Source of the DNA: Nitrosopumilaceae archaeon
Lineage (GTDB): Archaea > Thermoproteota > Nitrososphaeria > Nitrososphaerales > Nitrosopumilaceae
Assembly (NCBI GenBank): GCA_965209085.1
Contig: OZ242376.1
Location: 736,001 to 800,000, forward strand
Length of the DNA: 64,000 nt
Direction: 5' to 3'
The notes under the pieces are model-generated. The model ran no database searches, was not told the DNA's origin, and saw nothing but the letters and a program-made list of their open reading frames with translations. The position numbers were made by a program, and so were the translations under genes. Shown one piece after another: positions 18,321-62,951 of the stretch (position 1 is its first letter; every line of letters begins with the position of its first letter).

Positions 18321-19616
18321 TTGTTGCTTAACAAATTAACAATAATTGTAATTATAACAATTATAGCTATAACATCTACGCTTGTAATTGTAATTCCTGC
18401 TGACGATATTAACGTACAGTCTACAATCCATCATGAAAAATCCTTGGTTAATCCTACATGGTCATTTAACCAATCAGTTTCTGTTTCAGAGGCAAACAAC
18501 CAAGTAGCCATAAATTTGTTCAAACTGTTGGAAAATGATACACAAAAAAACATCTTTTTTTCACCTTTTAGTATTCTTACGGCCATGACGATAGAGTACG
18601 AGGGGGCACGGAGCAATACTGCATTAGAAATGGAAAAAGCACTGGGCATATCCTCTGATGATAATACACGTAGATTGAGACTGCAAAATATAACGCAAAG
18701 CCTAACGAATGAAAATCTAGATTATGAATTAAACGTGGCAAACGCCCTGTGGATTAGAGATGACTATAAAGTCCGTCCTGAATATGCAGGTATAGTAAAT
18801 ATCCATTATGACGGTGTTGTAGATTCATTTAACAGTAAAAGTGCTGATAAAATCAACAAATGGGCAAATGATTCAACAAGAGGAAAAATATCCAAAATAG
18901 TTGATGATGAAAGATTATTCGATGATGCTTTGAAAGTTATCATAACCAACGCAGTGTATTTTAACGCCTCTTGGATGCATGAATTTGACGTATTAGATAC
19001 CAAAAAAAGTGATTTTTGGGTTAATGATAAAAAAAGTTTGGATGTAGATATGATGAAGCAAGTTATTAGACAAATACATTATGCAAAAATAGATGGCGTG
19101 CAGATATTAAAAATTCCATACAAATCGGATTCGGACAGACTATCAATGATAATAGCACTACCCGAAGACAAGGACGGTATAGAAGATTTAGAGAATAATC
19201 TGACATATGATATGTTTACAGCATGGACTAGAAACACAGAACCTCATCTTGTGCAGATGTATATTCCAAAATTTAAAATAGAAACCAAATATGACGGCTC
19301 TAAAACAATACCCGCATTTAAGAATCTTGGAATATCTGATGCATTTTACCCCAGTAGTGCTAATTTATCAGGCATGGCATTCGATGCTGATGGTTTGTAT
19401 ATTAGCGATATTGTTCACAATGCATTTGTGAATGTAGATGAAATAGGAACCGAAGCTGCAGCTATAACAACAATATTTAATAGGCCAGAAAGTTCCACAG
19501 CATATCTTGGAGATACAATAACATTCAGGGCGGATCATCCATTTATATTTACAATTTGGGATGATGAGACAAATATCATACTATTTATGGGTAGAATCTC
19601 AGATCCAACCGCATAA
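18321..19616 (+). CDS. Serpin (serine protease inhibitor) with N-terminal signal/anchor
   Basis: NIFFSPFSI, INKWA..TRGKI, NAVYF, hinge VDEIGTEAAAIT, FRADHPFIF, ILFMGRI.DP. Confidence 0.95.
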   Translation: MLLNKLTIIVIITIIAITSTLVIVIPADDINVQSTIHHEKSLVNPTWSFNQSVSVSEANNQVAINLFKLLENDTQKNIFFSPFSILTAMTIEYEGARSNTALEMEKALGISSDDNTRRLRLQNITQSLTNENLDYELNVANALWIRDDYKVRPEYAGIVNIHYDGVVDSFNSKSADKINKWANDSTRGKISKIVDDERLFDDALKVIITNAVYFNASWMHEFDVLDTKKSDFWVNDKKSLDVDMMKQVIRQIHYAKIDGVQILKIPYKSDSDRLSMIIALPEDKDGIEDLENNLTYDMFTAWTRNTEPHLVQMYIPKFKIETKYDGSKTIPAFKNLGISDAFYPSSANLSGMAFDADGLYISDIVHNAFVNVDEIGTEAAAITTIFNRPESSTAYLGDTITFRADHPFIFTIWDDETNIILFMGRISDPTA

Positions 19617-32688: not shown

Positions 32689-34288
32689 CATAAAACCTGA
32701 TTCCATACCAAAGGATCCGGGCGTGTATATAATGATGGATTCTGCAAACTCGGCAATTTACGTGGGCAAGGCTAAAAATCTTCAAAACCGTGTTCGCACG
32801 TATTTTGCAAAAAACCGCGATTACAAGACGCAGAAATTAGTTGAAAAAATAGCCGACATTGAATTTGTAATAACTGATACTGAAGAGGAGGCGTTTTTGC
32901 TTGAATCAAATTTGATAAAAAGATACCGGCCGCACTATAACATTGAGTTGAGGGATCAGCAAAAATACACATATTTGAGAATTACTGATGAGAAATATCC
33001 CCGGCTGCTTGTCGCGCGGCGCACAAGGTCTGGAAAATTTATGGGTACTGGGAAAACGTACGGGCCGTTTACGCACGGTACATCAAAGCTTTTAACAATT
33101 GGAATGCTTCGAAAATCATTCAAAGTGCGCATATGCAAAACTTTGCCAAAAAAAGCGTGCCTTGAATACCATATTGGAAATTGCGATGCCCCATGTGAGT
33201 TTGCATCGGGGGGAGAAAAATATGCCGGACACATAAAAGAGCTGCATAATGTATTAAGTGGCAGGAAGGACATGGTACGGTACGAGCGCACACTTGATAA
33301 AATGATGCGCGAGGCATCAAATGATGGCCGCTTTGAGGATGCAATACAGATACGGGAAACTCTCCGCCGGCTTCAAAGCCTAAAGGGGAGGCAAAACATG
33401 GAGAGATCCTCATCCATACCTGATGAGGATTATGTGGGGATTTTGACTGTATGTGATAGCGCGCATGTTATGAGTTTGACGCAGTCTAATGGAATAATCC
33501 GCGACAGGGAGCGATTCTCATACGATGAGATTGCAGATAATACGTTTTCAAATTTCCTCTACCAGTATTATACGACGCGTAAAGTGCCCTCTGTAATTTT
33601 GACAAATATTGCACCTGCACGAAAGATTACCTTGGAGAGGATGCTCTCAAAGCAATCCGGGTATGAGGTGCGCATAAGGACTCCTGGGAGGGGGCGGCAG
33701 AGGCAGATAATGGATCTTGTAATGCGCAACATTGCCCTTGCAGTATCTGGTGGTGTGGAACCGGCAATAGCTGAGATGCAAAAGATGCTCGGGCTTGATA
33801 CCATACCCCACAGTATGGAATGCTTTGATATATCAAATCATGGATTCGATTATGCCGTAGGGTCAATGTCCAGGTTTGTTGACGGACAGCCAGATAAATC
33901 CGGATACAGGAAATTTATGATAAAAACTGTGAGTTCACCTGATGATTATGCAATGATTGCTGAGATTGTACATCGCCGGTATTCCCGTCTGAGTTTGGAG
34001 AAAAAACCCCTGCCGGACCTTGTTTTAATAGATGGAGGAAAAGGGCAGCTTGGCGCAGCATATAGGGAGATAAAACGTCTTGGTTTGAAAATACCGTGCG
34101 CCTCGCTTGCAAAAGAATTCGAACACGTATTTGTTTATGGCAAGTCTGCGCCGATAATAATGCCGCACAGCAACAAGGCGTTAAAAATTCTCCAGTATGC
34201 CCGAGATGAGGCTCACAGGTTTGGAGTTGCGTATAATAGAAATGTGCTAAAAAGGAAAACTTTGGGTAAGACTAGTTTACAGAGATAG
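32666..34288 (+). CDS. uvrC: Excinuclease ABC subunit C
   Basis: GIY-YIG PGVY...YVGKAKNL, FDISN, DDYAM, IDGGKGQL, RDEAHRF. Confidence 0.95.
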   Translation: MQKNAGYSIKPDSIPKDPGVYIMMDSANSAIYVGKAKNLQNRVRTYFAKNRDYKTQKLVEKIADIEFVITDTEEEAFLLESNLIKRYRPHYNIELRDQQKYTYLRITDEKYPRLLVARRTRSGKFMGTGKTYGPFTHGTSKLLTIGMLRKSFKVRICKTLPKKACLEYHIGNCDAPCEFASGGEKYAGHIKELHNVLSGRKDMVRYERTLDKMMREASNDGRFEDAIQIRETLRRLQSLKGRQNMERSSSIPDEDYVGILTVCDSAHVMSLTQSNGIIRDRERFSYDEIADNTFSNFLYQYYTTRKVPSVILTNIAPARKITLERMLSKQSGYEVRIRTPGRGRQRQIMDLVMRNIALAVSGGVEPAIAEMQKMLGLDTIPHSMECFDISNHGFDYAVGSMSRFVDGQPDKSGYRKFMIKTVSSPDDYAMIAEIVHRRYSRLSLEKKPLPDLVLIDGGKGQLGAAYREIKRLGLKIPCASLAKEFEHVFVYGKSAPIIMPHSNKALKILQYARDEAHRFGVAYNRNVLKRKTLGKTSLQR

Positions 34289-34928
34289 TGCCGCTCATCC
34301 ACGGATGAACTATGCAAAAGTATTCAAATGATCCTGCATCATAAAAGGTATATTCGAACGTGGCACCACTTGAGATTAGACCGCTGTTAAAAGTGCCGCT
34401 TTCACCTGATGTAATGCTGCCACCGGTTGCAGTATGCGCTGCAGTATCATCATTTGACCATACGATACGGTCGCCGGCATTGATTGATATGCTATATGGG
34501 ATAAAGCACTCGTTTGTCTCATCACATCCTTGAACAAACGTACCTGATGGTATTGAAACGGATTTTGTTACAGGTCCGGTTTCTTTTTCCATCATCATCA
34601 TCTCCTCTTCCATCATCATCATCTCTTTTTCCATCATCATCATCTCCTCTTCCATCATCATCATTTCTCTGTCAGCATTCATCATTTTCTCCATATCTGT
34701 CATCTCATCTCCCATCATTTCTCTGTCAGCATTCATCATTTTCTCCATATCTGTCATCTCCTCTTCCATCATCATCATCTTATCATACATCATCTCCTCC
34801 TCATCCATCATCATTGCATCCTGATTTGATTCGGATTGATCAATGGTAGTACCTATAACGGCTATACTTGCACCAAATAGAACGATGACCATGGTCCAAA
34901 CAATTGCTGCTTTGTCTACTGATCCCAT
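34272..34928 (-). CDS. Membrane-anchored blue-copper (cupredoxin) protein with Met/Glu-rich linker
   Basis: N-terminal TM; WSNDDTAAHT and YFCIVHPWM type-1 Cu ligands. Confidence 0.9.
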   Translation of the reverse strand: MGSVDKAAIVWTMVIVLFGASIAVIGTTIDQSESNQDAMMMDEEEMMYDKMMMMEEEMTDMEKMMNADREMMGDEMTDMEKMMNADREMMMMEEEMMMMEKEMMMMEEEMMMMEKETGPVTKSVSIPSGTFVQGCDETNECFIPYSISINAGDRIVWSNDDTAAHTATGGSITSGESGTFNSGLISSGATFEYTFYDAGSFEYFCIVHPWMSGTISVN

Positions 34929-34962
34929 GATTTGACCCGATCAGATGTGAATATAAGCGTTT

Positions 34963-35060
34963 TTTGACCGGGTTCTGTGTAGAATACGGGAGCTTGACTA
35001 GAGTGTGTAATTTCGGGAGTTTTTTGGACGATTTGCGATCAGAATGCGACATACTCACGA
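34963..35060 (+). repeat. Arm repeat, copy 1 (island left border)
   Basis: TTTGACCG-GGTTCTGTGTA...GTGTGTAATTTCGGGAGTT...TTTGCGATCAGAAT; reverse-complement homologue of the arm ending at 46075. Confidence 0.85.
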
Positions 35061-35084
35061 ATATCCGAATAAATTCTGTTCAAA

Positions 35085-35284
35085 TCACTATTGGGTAAAG
35101 GATGTAGGATTTATGTTGTGGTTGCAGCACAGTTCTGCAAGAGTGATGTGCGTGTTTATTGACTCCATGATGATACGCACCTTTTCGTCTGGAGCATGAT
35201 GTGATCTTTTCATTGATGAATACCTCCAAGACTGGATAAAATTTGTTCCACTTTGGGCGTTCTCATTTTATGGGGCCCACTCCA
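35085..35284 (-). mobile_element. IS3-family left-end fragment (variant like 58907)
   Basis: Reverse complement matches 58907-59100. Confidence 0.85.
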
Positions 35285-35403
35285 CACAGCAGCACGGATA
35301 CTCCCACTCACTCCAAAGGTCTCACGAACCACGAACTCAGGGATTTGCCAACACTTCAAGTGTATCGGACTTGCATGTTTTCAGTCCAGTCCAAATTCTA
35401 AGA

Positions 35404-38400
35404 CTAGGTATCATCGTATATGATTATAGTTCTAATTTTGCTCTCAGGCATGTTGCCGGCCGCATCGGGGGGCGCAATGTATTCTATAAAATACATTCCA
35501 GGCTGTAAAGTGCTCAGAGCAGTAGAGTTTTCACGCGTCGTACCCTGATACGTTGGATCATTATCGTGTACAGAGGCGCCAGCATCCGTATACTCGGATC
35601 CTGCAGGAATTCTCGCTGTAAGATTTCCGTCCAGTTGGATTGTAGGCGCATCCATGTCCACAAAGACGTTTGGTGAGTCAAGATCTGATTCGATTGCAAA
35701 TACGGTTCTGCCAGCAGAGTCAACGGCGGTAATGGCAAAGGTTGCATGACCGGCATCGCCTGCCAGTACGGATGCGCTTGCATATACTATATTCTCTGTA
35801 AAGACAACATTTGCATCCCTTCCCATAATGGTTGCAGATGCATCCGCAATATCTTCACCCAAAACCCATCTTATGGTGAGCAGATCGCCGGCATTTGCGT
35901 ATTCATAGTTTGGATTGTTGGATTTTATAATCAGACCTTGCTCGTGTTTTGGGTCTTTGAAATTGGCAGCAGCTACTCTGATTGAATCAAGCATTGATTC
36001 GTATGATTTGTCACCGTGCGCCGGAGTGCCACCCTGCGACGAGATTGGGTTTGCAGACGGACCAAGACTGACTGTCTGAATTCCCTCACCGTTGCTGCCT
36101 ATAACAGCATACAGGTCTGAATTGATTTGTACTGCCGAGACGCTTGTAGCAAGACCTGTGGATACAAAGCCGCCATAGCCATCACGGATTCCTGCAGCAG
36201 GTGTAGGATTGGAAGGATCTGTAATGTTTAATATCTGCACGCCGTCATCCTCGTGACTTGCCACAAGTGCATACACAAGTTGCCCTGATTTTACAATATC
36301 AACACCCATTGGAGCCTGCAGTGATTCAAAGATTGTTGGATGACGCTCAAAGCTGTCTCTGGGCGAAGATAAAACGCTCGGTGCGGTGGGGTTTGTAATT
36401 TCTATTATGTATACCTTGTTGTAATATGTGGAAGATATGACCGAAAAGGTTCTGCCATCATTCTGCACTATGTCGTTTGTGTTGAAATGGTATGGAAAGT
36501 ATACATAGTAAAATGGATTGGCGTTTATAATTAGTGTTACAAATGGGTTTGCAGGATCTGAAATGTTTATGAATAAATTCGAACCCCAGCCGGTTGAACC
36601 CAAAACGATAGCAAACGTTTCAGTACCGATTCGTACCGTATCTACATGGTAGGGGTCACCGCCAGTGAACGCAAATGTGGCTGTCGGATTTGTCGGATCG
36701 GTAATGTTTATGATTTGAAGTCCGTCATTCTCGCTTGCAATTATTGCAAACGTGTCATCGCCTATCTCAAAGGCGTCCACATCAAAGGCTCCATCAAGCG
36801 CTGTAAACGGTGTTGGGTTTTCATCCGTACTGTCAGTTATGCCCGCCACTGCGATGGGGTTTGTCGGATCTGTAATGTTTATGATTTGCAATCCGTCATC
36901 ATCATAGCTTGCAATTAGGGCATACGTGTTTGTGCCTATCCTTGTCGTATCCACGTTGCGAGGACCCTGCAGTTCCGTAAAGCTGTCCGTCCCATCGACC
37001 ATGGAGCTGATGGCAGCAGGGTTTGCAGGATCGGTAATGTCAGTTATTCTGGCATTACTTGAATGCCAATCCACGGTTATGGCATATGTTCCAAAACCGA
37101 TCTTTACAGTCTCTACATTATATACAGGATCAAATGCAAACTGACCGCCAATGCGTAGATTACCCAAAGCTACAGGATTGTCCATTGCTGCCGGATCTGA
37201 ATTTGTCGTGCCAGTTATGTTTACGGTGCGGGTTGTACCAACTAGTCTGTTACCACTATTGTCTCCGCCTCTGTTTCCGCTTGGATCTGGGGTTATATGA
37301 TATACGATCGTGTATGTTCCTACTTTGCTCGTGTCAATAAGGTTGGCATTGGATGTAACGGTTCCCACGTATGTGGGATCGTTATCGCGTGCTTCCACAC
37401 CTTGTTCATAATACTGGGTGCCGCGAATTATCACAATATTCAGATCTCCTGTTAGGTGTAATGTTGGAGGGGTTGTATCCACGAATACGTTTTCGGAGAT
37501 TAGATTTGATTCAGTTACGTTTAGCATGTTGCCTAGTCCATCTTGTACTATAATCTCAAAGGTAGTATTGCCGTTTGTATCATTCCACCATACGGGAATG
37601 CTTGCAATAATGGATGTTACATTGGATGATATGCTGGCATTTTTGTCCAGTATTGTGGCAGTTACAAGATTAATCTCCATGCCTGCGTGCAATACGACGG
37701 TTATAATATCATCTGCCCTTGCGCGGTGTACGTTTGGATTGCTACTGTATATGTCCAGACTGTACGAGATTGATTCGGTAATGGTGATTGGTTCCTCCCC
37801 TGTCACGTTCACGATGCGGGTTATGATCGGTGCCTGGTTTCCTGCAAGATCTGCGTCTGCGGTGTATTCTATGATGTGTATGTCGGGTACGGAGGTGCTC
37901 ACATCCGTGGCATTTGAGGTAATATTGCCTTTGTATGATGGATCATTGTCGGATAATAATGCTCCCGGGTCTACATATTCTTGTCCTATCTCTATATGAA
38001 CAATTGGCATGCCAATTAGGGTCAGATTGGGCGCGATTGTATCAACGTAGACGTTTGTATCTGTCAGATCGTGTTCTGATATTTTGAGTCTAGAGAGTAT
38101 GTCTATTAGTGAAATCGCAAATGTGAGATTACCGTTTGTATGATTTTCATGTATGGTAAAAGTTGCAGTCAATGTGTTGTTGTTTATGATCGGCAGGATG
38201 GTTTTATTCAAGACGGTCATTTCTGCACCGTATATGAGTCTGTTTGTTTGCAGTTCAAGTGTAACGTCATCTCCAGTTTTGGCATATGCGTGATTTTGCC
38301 CGTTGGATGTGGCACTAAACAAAGTTATCGCATACGGGACTGGATCAAATACTGTTACGGTTCGCGTTTTATTTTCAGGTATATTTCCTGCCTGATCTGC

Positions 38401-41400
38401 ATCAGCTGAACATTGTATGGTTTGATTTCCCAGTTTGGATGTGTCAATCAGTGTGTGATTTGAGGTTACAATGCTGGCATAGGATGGATTGTTTGCATCA
38501 GATACTGAACATCCCAGATCAAAGTAAAAGCTGTTATGCACTTGAGTTACGGGGTTGTCTCCTATTATGTCGATGATTGGTTTTACTGTGTCCACTATGA
38601 TATTGGCGGATGTTAAGTTGTCATGAGTTGCAAGCAATATTTTATTTCCGGGTGCATTTGCCATGATTGTAAATGATACAGGACCGTTTGTATCCTCAGT
38701 CATTACAGTCTGTACCGCACTTATTGAACCATTTTGTATTAGAATTGTGGCGTTGCGATCCAGTATCATGGCAGTAATGTTTGATATGGGTCCTGTTACA
38801 TTCATTGTTGCGGTAATATTGTCTCCAGTTTTTGCGTAGAGGTTATTGGTATTGGAATTTGATATTGTAGGAATTATGAATTTAGTTTCGTAGTTTATTT
38901 TAAGATCACCATATATATGAATGTCATTCAAATATACATGTTCGTTATGACTGTCGCTAGCGACTGTAAAGCGCAGTGTAAGACTGTCACTGTAGATATA
39001 TTTGCCAATATCTATATTATCACTAGACCATTCTATACCGAAACGTTCCTCGTTATTGTGGCGCTCCGTATAATTTGCCACCTGCTGCCAGCTGCCATTT
39101 CCGTCATTTGCTTCAATTTTTAATCCCTCATCGTTATAGTCATCAACATTTGTCATACGATATGAGAAATTAAGATGAACTTTTTCATAAGGGGTCATAT
39201 TCAAACCGTTTTTCATAACAAGTATACAATCTTGATCACAGTCAACCGCATGAAAGACAGTATCATCAACATTGTTTTGGTTTGTGGTGTTTGTGATTAG
39301 CCAATCTTCTCCTGAGCGATCCCACTCTTGGAACGTATCTGCATGATCTTGGAAAATTGTCACATTTTTGGATTTTATTTTTATTTCTATTGTTTCTGTT
39401 CCTGTAATGTTTGCATCGTTTATGCGTATAATTTCATCACTCTTACTACTAATGGCCGTTACGCGCACGTTAAAATTCTCACTGGATGAATATTCATCCA
39501 AATTCATGTTCATTTCAGTCCATGTGAATGAATCTGTGTTTACATCATCAAAAAATGCAATCTCGTGCCACGAGTTAGATACGTTGGATACTTCTATTCT
39601 GAGACCTTCATTTTGGTATGCATCTATTCTGCTTGATAGATAATACCAGAGATTCAAGTTGGCATTATCATACTCTGTTAGATTCATACTTTGTATCGTA
39701 ACTAGTTCGCACTCGTTATCGCAATCACTTGCCTCCAGCACCTCGTCCATTACGCCGTACTGGTTTATAACTGACTCATCTGTCCATGGGGAATTTGAGT
39801 TCCATAATATTTCAGCAAGTTTAGTTATCTCTTTTATGATATAATGACCATCATCATCATCATGATACAAATAGATGAAATCTCGGGCTATATTCCCTTG
39901 TGCATCTTCTGCCATTGCAGTGACCGTATTGGTAGAACGGGATAATGATATTGTGGTAGACCAGATGTGCAAATTATTTGTCAGATTGGAATTGAGCACA
40001 TCATTAACAAAAATCGTTATAGAAGTGACATTAATGTTATCTGATGATGTTCCATTAATGACAATGTTTTTACTTTGGAATGTGGATCTATGTGACGGAT
40101 GCGTGATTTCAATTTGTGGATTGGTTTTGTCCACATAATATCGGATGTTATTATGATGAAAGTTTAATCCTAGTGATGGATATCCCAAATTGTTCCAATT
40201 ATTTTCAAAGTCAAAGATTGTTGATGAATTATCATATTTAAATGCGCGCCATAACTGGGATTCAGTAGAAAGTGTGTCGTTGATTTCATTGGCATCATCA
40301 TATATATCCCATAAAGAGGCTGCCACCCATGATTCATATTTGCTGCCAGTAATGTTAAATCGATCAGAAAAAGGATATTCTGTAGTAGTACCAGCGTTGA
40401 AAGTTGCATACTCAAAATCAATTGGATCAACATAAAACCCAGGATACAATATGGGCGAATCCCTCATCCATATTGTAAAAAACCAAGCCCAACCTTCAAC
40501 CCATCCGCATTTATCGGTGTAATGGCTATCAATATTATGACCACGACATATGGGTATTTCTGAATTTAAATTTATATAAATTTGATCTTGAATATGATGG
40601 GCGTATTCATGTGGGAGTACAGCAGTAATGTTATAATTCAGCACATATGGAATATAGATTGTCGCATTTAGATAGGATGCCGGTCTAATATCATTTAATG
40701 TTACGTTAACGGTAGGTGCATCATACGACACCTTTGAGTATAATAAATCATGCATGGATGTCACATCAGCATACATTTGATGTGTAATTGGATAATTCAT
40801 CGGATATTGGTTTACGGTACCTACGTAAATTATTCTATCTTGTATGCCATAACGTATATTTGCAAGTGATTCATAAAATTCCACAGGTTTGTTATTGTTT
40901 ATAATTTTAACTGCATCATTTACTAATGATACACCAATAAGTAAATCCATGTATCCCCCACCAGGATTTGGATCCTCATTTATTCCTATTAATTTAAAGA
41001 AGCCATTAGAATATGATCGAGTACAAACATCACGGTCGCCACTTTTTAATATAGTCATATCACTATTATTGTGTATATTAACATCGAATGCACATATGAG
41101 ATAATCATCTGCTGGAACATGATTTAGATCCTCATTTATGGTATTATAATACCCATATACATAAAATTGAAGCGGAGCTGCTGCTGTCACCTTGGGTAAA
41201 AAAAAATCATTAAATATTGTATTTTGTGTTGAAAATTCCGGATATGCGTTAAAAAAATCATCTACAAAATCTTCTGAAAGATTTTCATCCATCAGCCAAT
41301 TTTTAGTAATTTGAATACCTTCATTTTTTTCCACTGATCTTAAAAATTCGGCAAGGCCTTCCCAACCTGGTTGAGGCACATATCCGGGTTCTTTAACTAC

Positions 41401-42402
41401 ATTTGGCGGCGGAGTAAATTGTTGGACAGGTTGAGGTTTTGGTATGTAATCAGGCAGACCACTTGGCAATGTTTCAAATTCCCGATCGCCACTAAACCAT
41501 TTTTGTGTTGTATGATTAAAGGACAATCCGAAATATTGTGTGGTATCGCGATAACTAGATACTCTAAATTCCGGATCTGTGTTGGATATAGCTTTTACTC
41601 CATGTTCAGTAGGGGTTAGTTGTAAATCCAATCCCACATCATGCACCCCTACACTAAAGATACTATCTGTATGCACCAGTGGTCTTGTTAATTGAAACTT
41701 TATGGAACCGTGGACAGTTTCATTAGTAAAAAATATGGGCTCTCCATGATAAACTACTTTCAGATATCTTATATGAGGACTTGCTGCGATTGATTTAGGT
41801 TTGAATGAATCAGTCAGCATGATAAATTCAGAGTGTAATATAATCTTAGGAACAACCATCACATCGTTTCCATGTATATCGAGATATCGAATATTACCAT
41901 TTTCATCAATACGATGAGGTCTACCATCAGGTACAGCATATTGAGGAGTGCCATCCTCATCAAGCCAATCCACGGTATAATTTATTATAGATGTTTCATT
42001 AATTTTGATATCTCGTGAAACTTCTAATGAAATAAATGGACTCACAAGATTTATAAAAGATTGATGTGATCCGCTAGTGATGGTAATTTTTCCATCATTG
42101 GCATTTGTTTCTCTAGATGTATTTACGGCAGGATATTTTATTTCAGTATGTTGTGTATTGGTCAATACCGACCATCCGAGTTTTTGAGCGGTTTTTTCTG
42201 ATACGCATGCAATTTTATCCATTCCTCGATCAACGAGTAAAAGATCGTCTCGGCATACTATATTATGCGGCATCGTTCCACTATCAAGCTGTTTTTTTGG
42301 ACTTTGAACATAATCTGAGGGTTGCGCGTATGTGGTAGAGATTGTGACAGTTGATAATATTATAATTAATGTGAGAATGAATAAAATTTGATAGTTTGGC
42401 AT
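35404..42402 (-). CDS. Giant secreted multidomain protein (2332 aa): HExxH metallopeptidase-like, Ig-like/DUF5011-like and LVIVD-like repeats
   Basis: Signal peptide, HEYAH...EGWA, repeated YAKTGD and VDT..P units, repeated GLQIINITDP.NP. Confidence 0.85.
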   Translation of the reverse strand: MPNYQILFILTLIIILSTVTISTTYAQPSDYVQSPKKQLDSGTMPHNIVCRDDLLLVDRGMDKIACVSEKTAQKLGWSVLTNTQHTEIKYPAVNTSRETNANDGKITITSGSHQSFINLVSPFISLEVSRDIKINETSIINYTVDWLDEDGTPQYAVPDGRPHRIDENGNIRYLDIHGNDVMVVPKIILHSEFIMLTDSFKPKSIAASPHIRYLKVVYHGEPIFFTNETVHGSIKFQLTRPLVHTDSIFSVGVHDVGLDLQLTPTEHGVKAISNTDPEFRVSSYRDTTQYFGLSFNHTTQKWFSGDREFETLPSGLPDYIPKPQPVQQFTPPPNVVKEPGYVPQPGWEGLAEFLRSVEKNEGIQITKNWLMDENLSEDFVDDFFNAYPEFSTQNTIFNDFFLPKVTAAAPLQFYVYGYYNTINEDLNHVPADDYLICAFDVNIHNNSDMTILKSGDRDVCTRSYSNGFFKLIGINEDPNPGGGYMDLLIGVSLVNDAVKIINNNKPVEFYESLANIRYGIQDRIIYVGTVNQYPMNYPITHQMYADVTSMHDLLYSKVSYDAPTVNVTLNDIRPASYLNATIYIPYVLNYNITAVLPHEYAHHIQDQIYINLNSEIPICRGHNIDSHYTDKCGWVEGWAWFFTIWMRDSPILYPGFYVDPIDFEYATFNAGTTTEYPFSDRFNITGSKYESWVAASLWDIYDDANEINDTLSTESQLWRAFKYDNSSTIFDFENNWNNLGYPSLGLNFHHNNIRYYVDKTNPQIEITHPSHRSTFQSKNIVINGTSSDNINVTSITIFVNDVLNSNLTNNLHIWSTTISLSRSTNTVTAMAEDAQGNIARDFIYLYHDDDDGHYIIKEITKLAEILWNSNSPWTDESVINQYGVMDEVLEASDCDNECELVTIQSMNLTEYDNANLNLWYYLSSRIDAYQNEGLRIEVSNVSNSWHEIAFFDDVNTDSFTWTEMNMNLDEYSSSENFNVRVTAISSKSDEIIRINDANITGTETIEIKIKSKNVTIFQDHADTFQEWDRSGEDWLITNTTNQNNVDDTVFHAVDCDQDCILVMKNGLNMTPYEKVHLNFSYRMTNVDDYNDEGLKIEANDGNGSWQQVANYTERHNNEERFGIEWSSDNIDIGKYIYSDSLTLRFTVASDSHNEHVYLNDIHIYGDLKINYETKFIIPTISNSNTNNLYAKTGDNITATMNVTGPISNITAMILDRNATILIQNGSISAVQTVMTEDTNGPVSFTIMANAPGNKILLATHDNLTSANIIVDTVKPIIDIIGDNPVTQVHNSFYFDLGCSVSDANNPSYASIVTSNHTLIDTSKLGNQTIQCSADADQAGNIPENKTRTVTVFDPVPYAITLFSATSNGQNHAYAKTGDDVTLELQTNRLIYGAEMTVLNKTILPIINNNTLTATFTIHENHTNGNLTFAISLIDILSRLKISEHDLTDTNVYVDTIAPNLTLIGMPIVHIEIGQEYVDPGALLSDNDPSYKGNITSNATDVSTSVPDIHIIEYTADADLAGNQAPIITRIVNVTGEEPITITESISYSLDIYSSNPNVHRARADDIITVVLHAGMEINLVTATILDKNASISSNVTSIIASIPVWWNDTNGNTTFEIIVQDGLGNMLNVTESNLISENVFVDTTPPTLHLTGDLNIVIIRGTQYYEQGVEARDNDPTYVGTVTSNANLIDTSKVGTYTIVYHITPDPSGNRGGDNSGNRLVGTTRTVNITGTTNSDPAAMDNPVALGNLRIGGQFAFDPVYNVETVKIGFGTYAITVDWHSSNARITDITDPANPAAISSMVDGTDSFTELQGPRNVDTTRIGTNTYALIASYDDDGLQIINITDPTNPIAVAGITDSTDENPTPFTALDGAFDVDAFEIGDDTFAIIASENDGLQIINITDPTNPTATFAFTGGDPYHVDTVRIGTETFAIVLGSTGWGSNLFINISDPANPFVTLIINANPFYYVYFPYHFNTNDIVQNDGRTFSVISSTYYNKVYIIEITNPTAPSVLSSPRDSFERHPTIFESLQAPMGVDIVKSGQLVYALVASHEDDGVQILNITDPSNPTPAAGIRDGYGGFVSTGLATSVSAVQINSDLYAVIGSNGEGIQTVSLGPSANPISSQGGTPAHGDKSYESMLDSIRVAAANFKDPKHEQGLIIKSNNPNYEYANAGDLLTIRWVLGEDIADASATIMGRDANVVFTENIVYASASVLAGDAGHATFAITAVDSAGRTVFAIESDLDSPNVFVDMDAPTIQLDGNLTARIPAGSEYTDAGASVHDNDPTYQGTTRENSTALSTLQPGMYFIEYIAPPDAAGNMPESKIRTIIIYDDT

Positions 42403-42437
42403 AATATTATATATATTTCATAATATTAATACATATC

Positions 42438-42522
42438 GGTTGTTTACTCTGTTAACTCTTATGTCTTTTCCACTATTTCAGACCTGCTGTTAATTTAGAG
42501 TGTTTTTCTGTTAACTTGGGGA
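42438..42522 (+). repeat. 85-bp perfect direct repeat, copy 1
   Basis: Identical to 49571-49655. Confidence 0.95.
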
Positions 42523-42652
42523 GGTGAGATAAAATTGGATCGTAATATGTCCATCTATTGTTAACATCCGAGAAAATCTAGCAGGCATATTCCATAACGT
42601 GGTAGAATTTCATATAATAGCACATTTATAATCATGCCACAATAATATCAAT

Positions 42653-42970
42653 ATGCAGTACATGATAATAACTCATTATCAAATATTAAAAATACTGTAT
42701 ACCAAATGGCCATACGGCATAACTGGCACTGAAATCTTGAAATATCTTCATGATAACAGTAACACTACGATTGATAATGGTGCTTTGAAAAAATATATGC
42801 TACAACTTGAAAAGGTTGGCCATATCAAGATAGGCGACTCGCCTTCATCATTAAATATTGACGACACACGTTATTTCTTAACACCAATCACGTTTTTGGC
42901 GATTTCTGAAAAATCAAAACATCCAAATTTACCATTTCCTGATGTGGAAAATAAACGCATACTTACATAG
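42653..42970 (+). CDS. Putative winged-HTH protein, possibly truncated by the IS
   Basis: ILKIL...GITGTEI...LKKYMLQLEKVGHI...YFLT; stop TAG is formed at the IS end. Confidence 0.55.
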   Translation: MQYMIITHYQILKILYTKWPYGITGTEILKYLHDNSNTTIDNGALKKYMLQLEKVGHIKIGDSPSSLNIDDTRYFLTPITFLAISEKSKHPNLPFPDVENKRILT

Positions 42971-44403
42971 GTCATGTCACAACTATTGAAAATTCTATTG
43001 GAAATTCCATCCAAAATGACAGTAAATATTTCAAAAACACACATCTGTCATCGATATCCGGACCCATTTGTTATCAAACCGTAATTTTACACAAAAATCT
43101 TCCAAAATTCACACATCTGCATACAGCGTCCGCTAGGCTTATTGCAGTTTGTGTCAGTGTACGGCACATATTAACAAATTGTACACTAGGATTTTCATGC
43201 CAATTTCTTGCTTTATGTTTTTCATATGTCTTGATCATACATGTTCTCCAAACCTTTCTTTGAATATTGCAAAAACAATTTCAGAGTGCCATCTTTTTCC
43301 ATACTCTATATCTTTTTTCCATTTTTTCAGATTTTCCTTTCGTTTTTGTATTGAAACATCATCCATTGTACGCTTGCTTGCATCTCCTCCAAGCTGATCT
43401 TGCACCGCCGTATTGCGTTCATGACTGCCGCCTGACAGTGCTGAATTGATACGCACCTTTAACAGACCAGACATGCAAAGTTTGTCACACACGTTGTAAT
43501 TTTCTTTTGTACCGTATGCCCCATCGCCAAGAATTTTCATCATTGTGTTTTTGTATTTGGCAGTCTCTTCAGTTGAATCCATCTCAGATATCATGTGCGC
43601 AAGCTGCCATCTGATCTTTTTGCGTGCCTTTCTTATCATCTGTGGAAACTGTGATGCATCCCCCTTGTTGCTTTTTGTTATCTTAAAATCGAGTATTTCA
43701 AGCGTTTCTACGTTTATGATAAGATGCAGTTTTAGAAACGGACTTGATATGCCCCATTTTTCTTTTATCCATGATCCAAGTTTTGATAGTTTCAGTCCGC
43801 TTGAATCAATAGAGATGAGCATCGTAGGCTGTCCGTTCATGCGCCTTGTCGGATCAAGTGTTTTTAAAGACAGACCACACATGCGGGCCATCTTTTCCAA
43901 TCCGTTATCAGAAATGTCCAATCTCTGTATGCGTTTGTATATCGTACTGCTAGATGGAGATGCATCATCCATTACTTTTCTAACCATCCCTTCAATAGTG
44001 CAGCTTGAGTAACTTGTGCACGCTTGGATTACCGATAATACCCAAAAAAGCTTGTCCGGATACATGTAACGTCTGCCGTTCTTACATTTGTTCATGCATT
44101 TGAGTTCTTTTTTGTATTCTTTTGGGACTGCAAACTGGCTCAGATGGCCAAACAGCATGGATGCAGCACGGCTTTTCAGGTTTTTCTCGGCAATTCTTTT
44201 TTATCCGCCTCTTTGGTTTCTGCATTCGATATTTTTATTACACAGTGCTTTCTACTCATAGTGGATCATCTCCGTGGGTGTTTCTCATAATTCGTCCACT
44301 TTGTGGGATGATCTAAATCTATGGAATCAAAATTGTCGCCAACTTGGATATTTTAATATCGTTTTAGTCAAAATGTCAGAATTAGGCAGGTTGTGATATG
44401 ACC
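42970..44403 (-). mobile_element. IS5-family element, copy 1 (1434 bp, TA flanks); transposase has a premature stop
   Basis: TIRs GGTCATGTCACAAC / GTTGTGATATGACC; IDSSG, GDGAY, YGKRWHSE; CGA>TGA relative to copy 2. Confidence 0.92.
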
Positions 44404-44629
44404 TATGACTCGGTGCCCGTTATTATTTAATAGATGAATTCATACAGGCACAGATTTCATATATAAAACAAAGTTTAGTTTAAATGTATGAGGCAACATT
44501 GCCAAATTGATTCTGGTACGATCAATCCCATCATGTTACGATAGTTAGGATTATTACACGAGTTCACTCTTGCTTAGCCTCAACTTATAATGGTCATAAC
44601 GTGCATTTAAACTTTTCTAATAGAATTAT

Positions 44630-44708
44630 GTATGAGGTCAGCACCTCGTGCTATTTTATGCCTACATCTTCATTTATTGCATAAATTCTAGGCATGACGT
44701 GACCTCAC
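44630..44708 (+). mobile_element. ~80-bp MITE, copy 1
   Basis: GTATGAGGTCA...GTGACCTCAC; near-identical to 59690-59767 and rc 51459-51539. Confidence 0.85.
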
Positions 44709-44757
44709 CATGAAATTAAAGTTAATATTCACAATTCATCTATAATTATAGTATATA

Positions 44758-45708
44758 TTGAAAATCCTAATAATTGGTACCTCCAGCGTTATTGGTTCTG
44801 CATTAACTGAGAGATTCCTAAAGATGGGAATTGATGTAACATGCTTGGATATTTGCCGAATAGATGAAGCTTGGAGACTAAACAACGTATGAGATCAGAT
44901 AAAATACATCTGGAAGGCCTCAAACGACCTATTGTTAGACGATATTAGAGGAATTGATGTAATAGTAGACAGCGGGGTAGGGGTGGCAGATCGACCACTT
45001 GGAACATCTAGCCCAACACATACGTTTACTGCAAACCTCGCCCCATCATTTCGGATTTTGGAAACGGTCAGCAAGATGGATGCAAAAAAACCCACAATAA
45101 TCTATCCAAGCTCCTTTAATACGCTGTATGGACATCCTGCAGGATCCGTATATGTTTCAAAAATGCTCCCAAACCCCTCTTCTGTATATGGCTGGACCAA
45201 GGCTGCCGCAGAACTACTTTACAGTACATACCACAAAGCTCATGGAGTACCCTGCGTGATAACACGGGTAGGTAGTGGATATGGGGCTAGAATGAGAAGT
45301 GATGAATTTCCGGCCCAGTTGATATTGAATGTGTTAAAAGGCAGGGATATAACCGTCAGATCTCCAAATGCCAAGAGATTGTGGACATTTGGAGATGACA
45401 TTATTGAATTTTATGCAAAATTAATAGAAAATCTAGACCAGTACATAGGTCAAACACTGCACTGTGCAGGAAATGCTGGAAACAATATTGTCAAGAATAC
45501 GACTCTAGCAAAAATGGTTACAAAAATTGGTAAAAGTGACATCAATATCAAATCTGGCGAATATGAACCGGGCGAGCTGGTCGATGGCAAACCCATATCA
45601 TTTGACATTGAGAGTCAATCCCCAATGTGGAAGCCAAAATTTACCCTGGAAGAAGGATTGACAATGACATACAAGTGGTTTGAGCAGAATTTATTTAGAT
45701 ATTCATAG
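44758..45708 (+). pseudogene. NAD-dependent epimerase/dehydratase with in-frame TGA at 44890
   Basis: MKILIIGTSSVIG (degenerate GxxGxxG), YGWTK catalytic motif, same frame on both sides of the stop. Confidence 0.8.
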
Positions 45709-45829
45709 TATACCATACCATACTCTGATCGAAAATCTTCCAAAATCACATACTTCGATCTAATATATGAAAAAATCTCTCAAAATTGATACTTTCGTAG
45801 GCATATTGTTAAACAGATCTCATAACCAA

Positions 45830-46250
45830 ATGGTGAATTCATACCTTTCTGATCGCAGATTCTGTAAAAACCCTGAAATTTCACATCTAATGATTTTCGT
45901 AAGAGTTTGACTCGTCTAAAACTAGATCGCTATTTCAAAAAAACCCTGATCGCAAATATCCACGTGATGCTTGTACCAACCCCCGAATTTACACACTATT
46001 TTGTATATAAAGCAAAAACCCCCGAAATTACACACTCAGGCATAACCCCCGTGGATTACACAGAACCCGGTCAAAGGTTCTGTGAAGTTGGCGGGGGTTG
46101 TGGCTAGGTGTGAAGTTTCGGGGGTTGTTTCTTTATATACAAAATGGTGTGAAATTTCGGGGGTTAATGTAGTATGTTGAGGTATTATTATGGATATTTG
46201 CGATCAGAATTTTTCTAGAATAGCGATCTAATTTTAGATGGGCAGAATTC
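45830..46250. repeat. Long imperfect palindrome of two arms around an 8-bp spacer (46068-46075)
   Basis: CACAGAACC-CGGTCAAA-GGTTCTGTG core; mirror-spaced AACCCCCGAAATTACACAC and CTGATCGCAAAT motifs. Confidence 0.9.
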
Positions 46251-46252
46251 AA

Positions 46253-46876
46253 TGGTGCGGACCCCTGTAGAGGGAGAATGATTTTTGTATTAAAAATGAT
46301 AGGATCAGAGGGCTCATTTTATCATTGCCCTCCGTGCGGTGCCAAATTCTGATGGCGTCGCATATCCTATTGCAGTGTACCCGGTTCTGATTGTAATCCT
46401 CAAAGGCGTATGATATTGTAGCCTCTGCGTCCTGGAACGTCTCAAAGTCGCGCGGCCAGACATACTCTTTCTTGAGACTCTTATGGAAGGATTCCACATA
46501 ACCGTTTTGCTCTGGCGTGTGATAGTGGATGAATTCCTGCCTCACACCGTATGCTTTTACAGCCTTGCCAAATTGCGCTAAAATATACTGGGAACCGTTA
46601 TCTGTTCTTAGGGTAAGATTTGAGCAATCCGGTTTCTTGGATGCCAAGGCTTAAGTTAATGCTGCAATGGCACCGTCCGTGACCGCTCTTGGCTCAAACG
46701 CATATCCTACCCATTCGCGGGTAAATGCAAAGGATGTTGAATAGGTAACACCATCTGTCCTGACCGCACCAAATGTACATCATGTCAGCCTGCCAAAGTT
46801 GATCAGGTCCTGTGGGTTTTGGGCGCTTCCTTGAGCGAATGATCTCTTTTTTGGGCTTTGCAGGCGTACTCCAGCC
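46253..46876 (-). mobile_element. IS3-family 3' fragment
   Basis: Matches 51639-52265; LRTDNGSQY, PEQNG.VESFH. Confidence 0.9.
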
Positions 46877-46912
46877 CCCCGAGTGTGGATGTTTTTTGTG
46901 TATGCGTTGATA

Positions 46913-48130
46913 TAGTATAAGAATTTATAATTTACATTTTATCACAAACACACCGAATACAATCTCCATAGTAACAATTACCCCACATTATTGTTTCTAA
47001 AAAATTAGATAATCGTGCAGTTTGACAAGTTTCATCTGATTAGACAATATGACCCGGTCAATTTTCTTTTTCAGGTGTCTGATCGATTCAAAATGCCCAT
47101 TTGATATGCATTTTCGTAAAACACGCCACTGGATTTCTATTGGGTTCAGCTCTGGCGTATACGGTGGAAGATAAATTAAACTGATTCGTCCTTTTCTAGA
47201 TTTGATGTATTCAAATACGTCACGGTGACGATGATAAGATGCATTATCATGCACTATTGTCACACGGCCAAACTCTTTTTCCAGGATTTTTATAAAATCC
47301 AAATGACTGTCTTTGTTTGCTTTATCGTAAAACTCGAATATGAAAGAATCCTTGCTTAAAGCTCCAAACATGGTTATTCTGTGTCTGGTCGGATCTAATG
47401 GAACTTGGGGTTTGCTGCCTATGAGGTACCATGCGTTACGGATATTGGTTGTTGGGTAAAGATGAATCTCATCCATGGATACAGTTACTGCTCCGTGTGC
47501 CTCTCTTTGTGCCAATATGTGCCTAGCTTTTTTTTAAAGCGTTCCTGTTCACTCTTTGATGCAGCTTTGGGATGGTACTGACGGGGTTTTTGAATTGTAA
47601 ATCCAAGACGTTTGAGTAAATTTTGTACAGAACGTGGGACATATTGTACCTTGAATTTTTTCCAAATGTGATCCGTTACCATTACAGTAGACCATGCGGA
47701 CTGACTATATCCGCATTTTTCAGGTCCGGCAATCAGATCCTTTGTTAGTTTTTCAAGCTGTTTTTCTGAAAGATGGCATTCCCTGCCAAGACGTTTTATG
47801 TTGTATCTTGAGGCTAGTCCATCCTCCATTACCCGTATGAGCCATTTGCATACTGTTGTCTCTTTTACGCCAAGCTCCTCGCCAATCTTCTCCATTGTTT
47901 TGTCCTGTTTTCTTTTAATCCATGAGAGAAGACGCTGTTTTGCAACTGGAATCTTTTCTTTTGCATAACAATTTCTAAGATATGTGATGCTCATGTTTGG
48001 CATGAACTCGATGCCTGTCGGAATTCTGTTCTGTCGCGTCATATTTGCTCTTAAATCTGGTGCGATCTAAACGTAGCGATTAAATTTTTGTTACAGAGTG
48101 GTTAAACGTAATTAATAACTTCTTATACTA
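46913..48130 (-). mobile_element. IS630-family element (ORFs 47485-48042 and 46997-47515, -1 frameshift at T TTA AAA AAA)
   Basis: TIR TAGTATAAGAA, TA flanks, MDE, HDNASYH, LPPYTPELNPIE. Confidence 0.93.
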
Positions 48131-48134
48131 TATA

Positions 48135-49568
48135 GGTCATGTCACAACTATTGAAAATTCTATTGGAAATTCCATCAAAAATGACAGTAAATCTTCCAAA
48201 AACACACACCTGTCATCGATATCCGGACCCATTTGTTATCAAACCGTAATTTTACACAAAAATCTTCCAAAATTCACACATCTGCATACAGCGTCCGCTA
48301 GGCTTATTGCAGTTTGTGTCAGTGTACGGCACATATTAACAAATTGTACACTAGGATTTTCATGCCAATTTCTTGCTTTATGTTTTTCATATATCTTGAT
48401 CGTACATGTTCTCCAAACCTTTCTTTGAATATTGCAAAAACAATTTCAGAGTGCCATCTTTTTCCATACTCTATATCTTTTTTCCATTTTTTCAGATTTT
48501 CCTTTCGTTTTTGTATTGAAACATCATTCATTGTACGCTTGCTTGCATCTCCTCCAAGCTGATCTTGCACCGCCGTATTGCGTTCATGACTGCCGCCTGA
48601 CAGTGCTGAATTGATACGCACCTTTAACAGACCAGACATGCAAAGTTTGTCACACACGTTGTAATTTTCTTTTGTACCGTATGCCCCATCGCCAAGAATT
48701 TTCATCATTGTGTTTTTGTATTTGGCAGTCTCTTCAGTTGAATCCATCTCAGATATCATGTGCGCAAGCTGCCATCTGATCTTTTTGCGTGCATGTCTGA
48801 TCATCTGTGGGAACTGTGATGCATCCCCCTTGTTGCTTTTTGTTATCTTAAAATCGAGTATTTCAAGCGTTTCTACGTTTATGACAAGATGCAGTTTTAG
48901 AAACGGACTTGATATGCCCCATTTTTCTTTTATCCATGATCCAAGTTTTGATAGTTTCAGTCCGCTTGAATCAATAGAGATGAGCATCGTAGGCTGTCCG
49001 TTCATGCGCCTTGTCGGATCAAGTGTTTTTAAAGACAGACCACACATGCGGGCCATCTTTTCCAATCCGTTATCAGAAATGTCCAATCTCTGTATGCGTT
49101 TGTATATCGTACTGCTAGATGGAGATGCATCATCCATTACTTTTCTAACCATCCCTTCAATAGTGCAGCTTGAGTAACTTGTGCACGCTTGGATTACCGA
49201 TAATACCCAAAAAAGCTTGTCCGGATACATGTAACGTCTGCCGTTCTTACATTTGTTCATGCATTTGAGTTCTTTTTTGTATTCTTTTGGGACTGCAAAC
49301 TGGCTCAGATGGCCAAACAGCATGGATGCAGCACGGCTTTTCAGGTTTTTCTCGGCAATTCTTTTTTATCCGCCTCTTTGGTTTCTGCATTCGATATTTT
49401 TATTACACAGTGCTTTCTACTCATAGTGGATCATCTCCGTGGGTGTTTCTCATAATTCGTCCACTTTGTGGGATGATCTAAATCTATGGAATCAAAATTG
49501 TCGCCAACTTGGATATTTTAATATCGTTTTAGTCAAAATGTCAGAATTAGGCAGGTTGTGATATGACC
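48135..49568 (-). mobile_element. IS5-family element, copy 2 (transposase 48319-49323)
   Basis: Near-identical to 42970-44403, same length, TA flanks. Confidence 0.93.
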
Positions 49569-49570
49569 TA

Positions 49571-49655
49571 GGTTGTTTACTCTGTTAACTCTTATGTCTT
49601 TTCCACTATTTCAGACCTGCTGTTAATTTAGAGTGTTTTTCTGTTAACTTGGGGA
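49571..49655 (+). repeat. 85-bp perfect direct repeat, copy 2
   Basis: Identical to 42438-42522. Confidence 0.95.
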
Positions 49656-49755
49656 TGTGGAGACTATTCTGATCGCAATATGTCGTAAAATATGATGTAA
49701 TTTATGCCAGTTTTCTTAAAATCTACTTATGTGGTAGCCCGAACCAAATTTAGTT

Positions 49756-51458: not shown

Positions 51459-51539
51459 GTGCGAGGTCACGCCATGCCTAGAATTTATGCAATAAATGAA
51501 GATGTATGCACAAAATAGCACGAGGTGCTGACATCATAC
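51459..51539 (-). mobile_element. ~80-bp MITE, copy 2
   Basis: Reverse complement of the 44630/59690 copies. Confidence 0.85.
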
Positions 51540-58738: not shown

Positions 58739-58832
58739 TATAACCACACGCAAAAGTTCGTGAGCTAAAAATAGTCTCAATTCGATAGTACATAGACGGT
58801 CAAACGCTTATGAACTTTGGCGTGTCGCTATA
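58739..58832. mobile_element. 94-bp MITE with the TIRs of the IS630 at 55966
   Basis: TATAACCACACGCAAAAGTTCGTGAG...CTTATGAACTTTGGCGTGTCGCTATA. Confidence 0.8.
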
Positions 58833-62494: not shown

Positions 62495-62750
62495 TAATTC
62501 ATAAAATTTATGTTTGATGGCTCTGAAATCCGTGGAGGTTGTGACTAGGTATGAAGTTTCGGGGGTTTTTCTATATGTACTATAAAGTGTGTAAAATTTG
62601 GGGTTGGTGCAACATGCCGAAGTATTATTTGGGATATATACGATCAAAATTTTTCTAAAATGACGATATAATTTTAGATGTGTCAAATTCTTATAACACA
62701 GATCAAATATGATGTTTCAGGGTTTTTTGGAGGATCCACGATCATAATGG
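62495..62750 (+). repeat. Arm repeat, copy 4 (diverged)
   Basis: Colinear with 46076-46250 and with rc 45830-46067. Confidence 0.85.
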
Positions 62751-62951
62751 TGTGGGTAAGCAGGTTAGTCTTGGTAACCACTGCTATGTAATAGAAGATT
62801 ACCCTCACCCATAGTGGGATATTTTTGTTCTGATAGGAATGATCATTTTTGTACAAAATTCCTTTTTCCACATCCAATACATTAAAATCAATTCTCCGAT
62901 CTAACCAACTGCCATTTTTGGATTTTTTCTAGTGATTTACTCCAGCATTTA

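Follow-up and report, generated by a model that had tools for sequence, protein, structure and literature searches.

The cupredoxin border and the island beyond it

The window, which is the whole stretch of 64,000 nucleotides analysed here, contains a cupredoxin gene whose promoter region borders on an island riddled with other insertion sequences (ISs) (Table 1). At this border, the 19 bp at 34963-34981 and those at 46057-46075 are exact reverse complements of each other, with zero extension of the match on either flank; by base composition, 4e-7 chance copies would be expected in the window and 1e-5 in the genome. The initial annotation had described the border as an 8-mer, TTTGACCG, followed by a shortened arm. 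That description was borne out, with A motifs at 34976-34992 and 35004-35019 and a B motif at 35032-35043. As also proposed there, the arm is nearer to the left arm of the palindrome at 46 kb (42/54 identities over the first 54 nt) than to the right arm (35/54), and the DNA to the left of the 8-mer is the cupredoxin promoter rather than an arm, since CTTATATT is found there on the minus strand, reading from 34957 to 34950.

Table 1. Features of the border and the island in the window.
Feature	Position	Strand	Remarks
Cupredoxin gene (plastocyanin/azurin-type), its promoter the proposed docking site	34272..34928	-	Pfam Copper-bind; orthologue adjoins uvrC in the same-genus genome G001
TATA box CTTATATT	34950..34957	-	Starts 14 nt outside the element end, 29 nt before the ATG
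5-nt spacer AAACG from target to TATA box	34958..34962	-	On what we take to be the BRE side; A at -3
Target 8-mer T (TTTGACCG), promoter-proximal copy	34963..34970	+	
Transposon end a1	34971..35093	+	GGTTCTGT tip, two A motifs, B motif, then epimerase gene-tail remnant
IS3-type element, 5' fragment fused to a1	35094..35284	-	Fusion recurs at genome 805865-806059
2332-aa surface protein gene	35404..42402	-	Ig-like domains; within the island
Variant family end	42437..42551	+	TACTCTGT tip at 42445; TATTAATA at offset 14; duplicate at 49571-49684
IS5-like copy 1	42968..44405	-	Pfam DDE_Tnp_1, IS5 label from the initial annotation; direct repeat of copy 2
Truncated NAD-dependent epimerase cargo gene	44932..45708	+	95.6% copy with the same end at genome 661076-662349
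Transposon end a2	45724..46067	-	Three A and three B motifs; 22 diagnostic bases in common with the end at genome 805708
Inverted target 8-mer T'	46068..46075	-	Loop of a strong hairpin, -69.5 kcal/mol over 90-bp arms
Transposon end a3	46076..46251	+	TGTGAAG motif variant
IS5-like copy 2	48134..49570	-	IS630-type element inserted at left tip
Decayed transposon end a4	62517..62754	+	No adjoining 8-mer

Two further proposals, that the 8-mer is a chromosomal target duplicated upon insertion and that the ancestral layout was a tandem stack of the form target-E1-target-E2-target, were upheld: three copies of TTTGACCG were found, each abutting GGTTCTGT ends, and one inner copy is now inverted. A search past 64 kb recovered the predicted CACAGAACC-TTTGACCG sequence, but a third arm comes next and not the core genes that had been expected. 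This third copy lies in direct orientation between two more arms at genome 805709-805716 (window-equivalent 69709-69716), 5.7 kb past the window. The arm-8-arm junction there (genome 805701-805724) has its 8-mer oriented as at 34963 and was present in 3/3 sequencing runs. The layout is thus promoter-T-a1 ... a2-T'-a3 ... a5-T-a6 ..., with direct TTTGACCG copies on either side of the 34,738-bp segment 770971-805708. GGTTCTG tips were seen at a1, a2, a3, and both ends outside the window. The inner part of a1 and the end at genome 805717 are 91% alike. Genome-wide, 11 such arms were detected, the whole set lying within 661-843 kb.

In G001, the only same-genus genome (~72% identity), the 8-mer is matched at 4/8 bases and both the arm and the 46.6-kb interval are absent. 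The interval is replaced there by 86 bp, and the genes are syntenic on both flanks. At such divergence, G001 does not provide a clean empty site. A search for the arm DNA in 40 relatives gave no match outside this genome.

Several other features were observed in or near the island. An armless copy of the 8-mer at window 58797-58811 is followed by CGCTTAT, like the cupredoxin promoter junction minus three bases, and may be due to chance. A miniature inverted-repeat element of ~77-85 bp has ~30 copies in the genome, including those at window 44630-44706, 51463-51539, and 59690-59763. Genes for an OLD/GajA-like ATPase-TOPRIM nuclease (window 60277-62157), an RNase_H_2 protein with a weak Cas4 match (window 53311-54795), and two serpins (window 18321-19616; L001 10403-11824) are also located within the island or close to it. 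Immediately after IS5-like copy 2, the first 115 bp of the variant family end occur a second time. The IS5-like element is often found inside TATGCATAA-type sequence that also ends another IS (genome 919144, 546378, 804309, and 751828), and such sequence is possibly an insertion hot spot for it. The interval absent from G001 also contains, at genome 812700-817500, a NurA fragment and a gene for deoxyhypusine synthase; no closing arm was found, and the right border of the island is thus undefined. In sequencing run X1, low-depth contigs carried variants of the arm at window 35002-35045 that are absent from the assembly (depths 208 and 29), pointing to more family ends in a subpopulation or a co-occurring strain.

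Transposase and ends of the element family

No transposase gene of the family was found between the island arms. The enzyme may have been supplied in trans by relatives elsewhere in the genome, where four IS6-type DDE genes were found. One element served as a control within the genome: 570889-575328 carries a transposase, has GGTTCTGT ends that are inverted at 20/20 bases, and is flanked by a perfect 8-bp direct repeat, showing that GGTTCTGT ends make 8-bp target duplications.

In the transposase, a SWIM-like CxC..CxH module is combined with a zinc ribbon, an HTH, and a DDE core whose D205, D264, and E299 are invariant. The best NCBIfam match was IS6 in 5/5 proteins, at 106-120 bits against a cut-off of 125, and Pfam DDE_Tnp_IS240 scored above its cut-off. 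A structural model (pLDDT 83) matched integrase and transposase cores with Z of 13-14 over ~150 residues. For the N-terminal 86 residues on their own, the model was of low confidence (pLDDT 59.5) and had no Foldseek match at E <= 0.001. Transposase relatives were found in 75/201 family genomes. Among the matches listed were records titled Bathyarchaeia, Methanoperedens, and Promethearchaeati. Close relatives were among those titled Nitrosopumilus and Nitrosopumilaceae, which points to an ammonia-oxidising archaeon as the host. A longer family transposase of 541 aa, with two tandem SWIM modules and a C-terminal extension, was seen at genome 1308423-1310048 (L036 4423-6048).

These elements were compared with IS26, IS257, the long zinc-finger clades, the passenger-carrying ISDsp3, and the archaeal ISH14/ISC735 clades of the IS6/IS26 systems (PMC6807381, PMC7986276). 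The likeness lies in a terminal repeat of the form GG...G7, in keeping with the IS6/IS26 consensus of a GG start and a G at position 7 (PMC6807381), in the 8-bp target duplication, and in an HTH plus DDE transposase with IS6 as its best profile match. The differences are also clear. The elements here are 1.9-6.9 kb long with cargo, compared to ~0.7-0.9 kb for most IS6 members. Their ends span 55-165 bp and are imperfect with repeated, predicted binding motifs, whereas IS6 elements have short, near-perfect 14-bp repeats. The 370-aa transposase has an extra N-terminal SWIM module. In addition, unlike IS6 elements, they keep a fixed register to TATA boxes, and differing elements are stacked end to end at one 8-mer. 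Given that the tips and the duplication length agree, the profile score is borderline, and the size and end structure do not agree, the family is IS6-like and not a member of IS6. In the literature, archaeal and long zinc-finger elements are argued to fall outside IS6/IS26 (PMC6807381), and one passenger-carrying member is listed (PMC7986276). The word SWIM is absent from the accessible part of PMC6807381, and that of PMC11529989 mentions neither IS6, TATA, nor promoter.

Position of the TATA box relative to element ends

The sample consisted of DNA around 80 of the 150 family matches listed plus 77 GTDB loci. An exact 8-bp direct repeat together with matched ends, meaning at least 14/20 identical bases, was present for 72 of the 181 transposase hits (67 distinct), and 104 gave no repeat-bounded element in the DNA sampled. 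The 67 distinct elements were 1,855-6,893 bp in length. TATA boxes were scored as YTTAWA, which we take to be the archaeal TATA consensus, with at most one mismatch and reading outward from the element ends.

The motif started at position 14 in 45/103 pooled flanks, compared to 0-7 at offsets 20-30. Among single elements, a TATA box was found at offset 14 in 28/42, and on both sides in only one of them; relative to the transposase gene, it lay on the 5' side in 15 cases and on the 3' side in 14. The background was 6.2% of 157,748 intergenic positions in the same loci. After homologous targets were merged, 25/39 were positive, against a mean of 3.4 and a maximum of 9 in 1,000 shuffles of the flanks. 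The peak was one base wide, with 28 elements at offset 14 and 5 each at offsets 13 and 15; the 13 at offset 16 overlap the same AT-rich box. Six other IS families in this genome, with borders taken from BLAST edges, had the motif at this position in only 4/139 flanks. An A occurred at the same spacer position as at the cupredoxin promoter, within what is presumably the BRE, in 61/103 pooled flanks and 38/66 host promoters. The consensus was absent at offset 14 in 14/42 single sites.

Where elements were stacked, a TATA box lay on the free side of the terminal intact one in 16/18 cases, which suggests that the newest element sits beside the promoter. Two other sets were scored. A metagenome scan gave 9/16 free ends with a TATA box at offset 14, one of the nine being a decayed end and not a promoter; a transposase relative was present in only 22/80 of the scanned loci, and many of the pattern matches are probably unrelated palindromes. 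A held-out set of 30 regions was picked by the junction pattern alone (31/43 junctions, the other 12 being already in the earlier sets), and its stack ends had a TATA box at offset 14 in 10/16.

The host's own genes were used to place the motif. It lay 29-31 nt before the ATG in 41/634 genes, with the three distances summed, and each other distance had 0-6. Two entries of a hand-compiled list, 1625967 (set on the wrong strand) and 1312896 (a junction), were disregarded. An ATG at 29-34 nt was found in 13/45 TATA-positive flanks compared to 5/58 negative ones, and the distance at cupredoxin is 29. A further 13/45 TATA-positive flanks had no reading frame with an ATG inside ~250 nt. At the variant family end in the window, TATTAATA lies 29 nt before the ATG of the giant surface-protein gene. 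It has two mismatches to the TATA consensus and was, therefore, excluded from the hit counts; the promoter of this gene was probably also a target (window 42424-42551).

The register is scattered across the whole GGTTCTGT clade and several archaeal phyla; the clade tree is a quick version, and sites were tested in 2 of its 7 outgroup-labelled rows. In distant SWIM-bearing relatives with other tips, no TATA box was found at offset 14 in 6/6 usable sites, while 14/20 loci gave none usable. The SWIM domain was considered as the targeting domain, and this idea was weakened by the same 6/6 sites: because these relatives bear SWIM and show no register, SWIM alone is not the determinant. Among multi-copy SWIM-bearing ISs, those at L426-L429 and L435-L436 have GATTCTCC or GGTTCTTC tips and 8- or 9-bp duplications and lie outside the TATA register, providing a natural negative control.

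Other target sites were also noted. The radA promoter was hit time and again, with 8-mers that differ between genomes (L049, L159, L180, L188, L197, L200, L046, L476, L478, and others). Further promoters hit include those of tfb, thermosome, Lsm-type, and sufB-like genes, with names read from translations. In this genome, a 1.2-kb arm-bounded element at 824176-825407 has a decayed repeat (6/8) and a TATA box at offset 14, which lies 30 nt before an Mrp/NBP35-type gene. At the cupredoxin promoter of G001 (L028 ~1492), an end-like GATACTGT remnant is found 13 nt from the orthologous TATA box, one base off register, an indication that this promoter was a target in the sister species as well. A recurring palindrome with the spacer GTGACGGC was seen in high-GC metagenome contigs (L243, L272, L277, L297, L307, and L314); a transposase relative is absent nearby, and it is probably unrelated to the GGTTCTGT family.

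Proposed growth of the stack and inversion of its inner spacer

We hold with considerable confidence that 34963 is the promoter-proximal border of a decayed stack of IS6-like transposons, that this stack likely grew by insertion at a constant short distance upstream of TATA boxes, with TBP/TFB as the probable guide, and that an unspecific event likely turned its inner spacer round afterwards. The transpososome would be placed by a TATA-bound protein, or would read the box itself, and would cut at bases -13 to -6. Duplication of these bases would leave intact both the TATA box and the 5-nt spacer that precedes it, with its conserved A at -3, so that the gene would keep its promoter and the same 8-mer would be offered again. 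The next element would then land beside the promoter with the older ones displaced outward, and repeated landing at one promoter would produce a stack. Neither the enzyme family nor its promoter-register targeting figured in the initial annotation; the targeting would explain the repeated hits on one 8-mer. Stacks of differing elements split by one 8-mer occur in many genomes. We somewhat favor a TBP/TFB tether as what positions the insertion, and the host genome encodes both TBP and TFB. The register is one-sided while the elements are randomly oriented, which fits a tether. Alternatively, the transposase may read the TATA box itself. As a family-level rule, targeting is well supported computationally and experimentally unproven; the sites are genome survivors that have been filtered by selection, with no fresh insertions among them.

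Flipped spacers were found in 3/51 other stacks with at least two copies, and the short-read cases may include misassembly. Because they are rare, flipped spacers are secondary events, and the inverted spacer here is most likely an accident. A flip of the segment that holds the junction and a flip of the 8-base loop are about equally likely as its cause.

In the first case, which comes close to an even chance, the segment holding the junction a3-T-a2 was inverted or moved via other repeats, for example as a circle between IS5-like copies that re-integrated reversed. The a2 end and the 69708 end would then have once belonged to one element. This is consistent with the diagnostic bases, of which 22 are common to a2 and the 69708 end, compared to 8 for a3 and the 69708 end and 6 for a2 and a3; 10 gap columns, however, group a3 with the 69708 end. 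The epimerase tail is present on a1, a2, and the 69717 end and not on a3 or the 69708 end, a distribution that one inversion explains. The unit 44406-48133 is bracketed by a direct IS5-like pair. The initial annotation had suggested a flip via the flanking IS5 pair, but this proposal is weak, as the pair in the window is a direct repeat and simple recombination between its copies cannot invert the DNA. The IS5-like copies may have acted through a translocated circle. A third IS5-like copy, at genome 802870-804309, is inverted and straddles the junction, but no reciprocal swap was seen between its flanks and those of copy 1. In fact, 0/3 island IS5-like copies have matching or swapped flanks, while 5/5 full copies elsewhere keep their 8-bp repeats (by eye). 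No breakpoint was pinned, and the IS3 fragments and the 77-bp miniature element were examined with nothing decisive found. In a relative (L482), a flipped junction with a weak hairpin lies between 167-bp inverted homologous segments, which resembles a naturally occurring example of such a segment flip.

Another explanation, which is realistic but less than an even prospect, is that only the 8-base loop, with maybe a few stem bases, was flipped by inter-strand template switching or cruciform processing while the elements stayed unmoved. Inversion of hairpin loops by template switching is known (PMC10710096), and the accessible part of PMC5941160 covers general template switching only. Over 30-bp arms, the junction here has a hairpin energy of -21.6 kcal/mol and that of L483 has -20.4, each matched by 1/59 direct junctions. 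The orthologous stack of L483 in L485 has a direct spacer and a weaker hairpin. At both L046 and L483, an intact element with matched ends lies between T and T'. The hairpin effect over all four flipped junctions is, however, borderline (one-sided P 0.054), with L482 being weak, and two extra deletions would be needed to account for the epimerase tail at both ends of the 11-kb segment.

An improbable third source of the inverted spacer is replicative transposition in trans of a stack member into the promoter-side target, which would duplicate the target in inverted form. Such an outcome is known for IS6 elements (PMC7986276, Fig. 6 legend) and would fit cases such as L046, in which T and T' flank an intact element. 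It predicts two inverted whole-element copies, but none were found in the island or in the fragmented assembly of G191, and the likeness of a1 to the 69708 end covers only 54 nt.

For the growth of the stack, it is unlikely that a preference for resident ends, or selective purging elsewhere, produced such arrays with no guiding role for promoters. IS26 does have a reaction aimed at resident copies (PMC6807381, PMC7986276), and 23/67 elements abut another end. Single elements with no resident neighbor nevertheless keep the register in 28/42 cases, selection would permit any upstream distance whereas the TATA peak is one base wide, and the other IS families in the same genome have no such peak.

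The initial annotation's alternative, an invertible 11-kb segment at 34963-46075 carrying the giant surface-protein gene, is very improbable as a site-specific switch of that gene: the segment is bounded by exact 19-bp inverted repeats and its arm-8-arm shape is like that of lox-type sites, but a search of the 98.35%-complete genome gave no tyrosine (PF00589) or serine (PF00239) recombinase (with positive controls in 14/14 and 12/14), such ends elsewhere enclose transposase genes and come with direct repeats, and the giant gene has its own promoter-like site within the segment, so that flipping would not switch it. Contigs of 3/3 runs contained only the window junction at 34963 and the 69.7-kb junction, with no joint of the promoter to the other arm; contigs can drop rare variants, although one run, at a depth of ~1,800, kept variants at depths of 29 and 3, and the best run may be the source of this assembly.

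Insertion beside the promoter, with the older elements pushed outward, is the reading we prefer for this island. Tn7-like transposons and casposons likewise have repeated binding sites in long ends and insert in tandem at one safe site. Tn7-like elements have a TniQ/TnsD target selector, a 5-bp duplication, and TG tips. In contrast, the duplication here is 8 bp, the tips are GG, and neither Cas1 (PF01867) nor TniQ (PF06527) was found in this genome, the control for TniQ being weak (0/14 over cut-off). The target here is also a promoter register at many unrelated genes and not one attachment sequence.

The yeast element Ty3 provides a closer parallel. Its integrase contacts TBP and Brf1 of TFIIIB and is placed at a precise distance from the TATA box, which spares the gene (PMC8632968). 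As with Ty3, a DDE enzyme acts here at a fixed TATA distance, with offset 14 found in 28/42, 16/18, 9/16, and 10/16 of the sites in the four sets. It differs in being an archaeal DNA transposon that inserts upstream of the TATA box at protein-coding genes, with a presumed contact to TBP/TFB. By analogy, the element would work like an IS6-type DDE transposon with Ty3-like positional targeting.

The wider reading, to which we give an even chance, is that an archaeal DNA transposon family docks on TBP/TFB at core promoters as a prokaryotic counterpart of Ty3. It would build polarised, integron-like stacks of cargo, such as defence, surface, and sugar-modifying genes, before housekeeping promoters, with the palindromic junctions being hot spots for later flips and inversions. 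To our knowledge, prokaryotic transposons choose their sites by sequence, by a dedicated DNA-binding protein, or by a guide RNA. Targeting by the geometry of basal transcription is established for yeast Ty3 (PMC8632968). In a literature search of article texts, we found no description of promoter or TATA targeting by archaeal transposons; ISfinder-based accounts may exist.

The locus itself is a decayed example, and its own contribution is a three-copy series of spacers with one inversion, an arrangement that is rare among the other stacks. If the wider reading is true, it would account for the build-up of cargo islands next to radA, tfb, the thermosome gene, this cupredoxin gene, and other core genes, and the elements would mark TATA positions in the genomes of uncultured lineages. 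It would also offer a one-protein, safe-harbour insertion tool for archaea and would allow a direct test of whether tethering of transposons to TBP/TFIIB predates eukaryotes.
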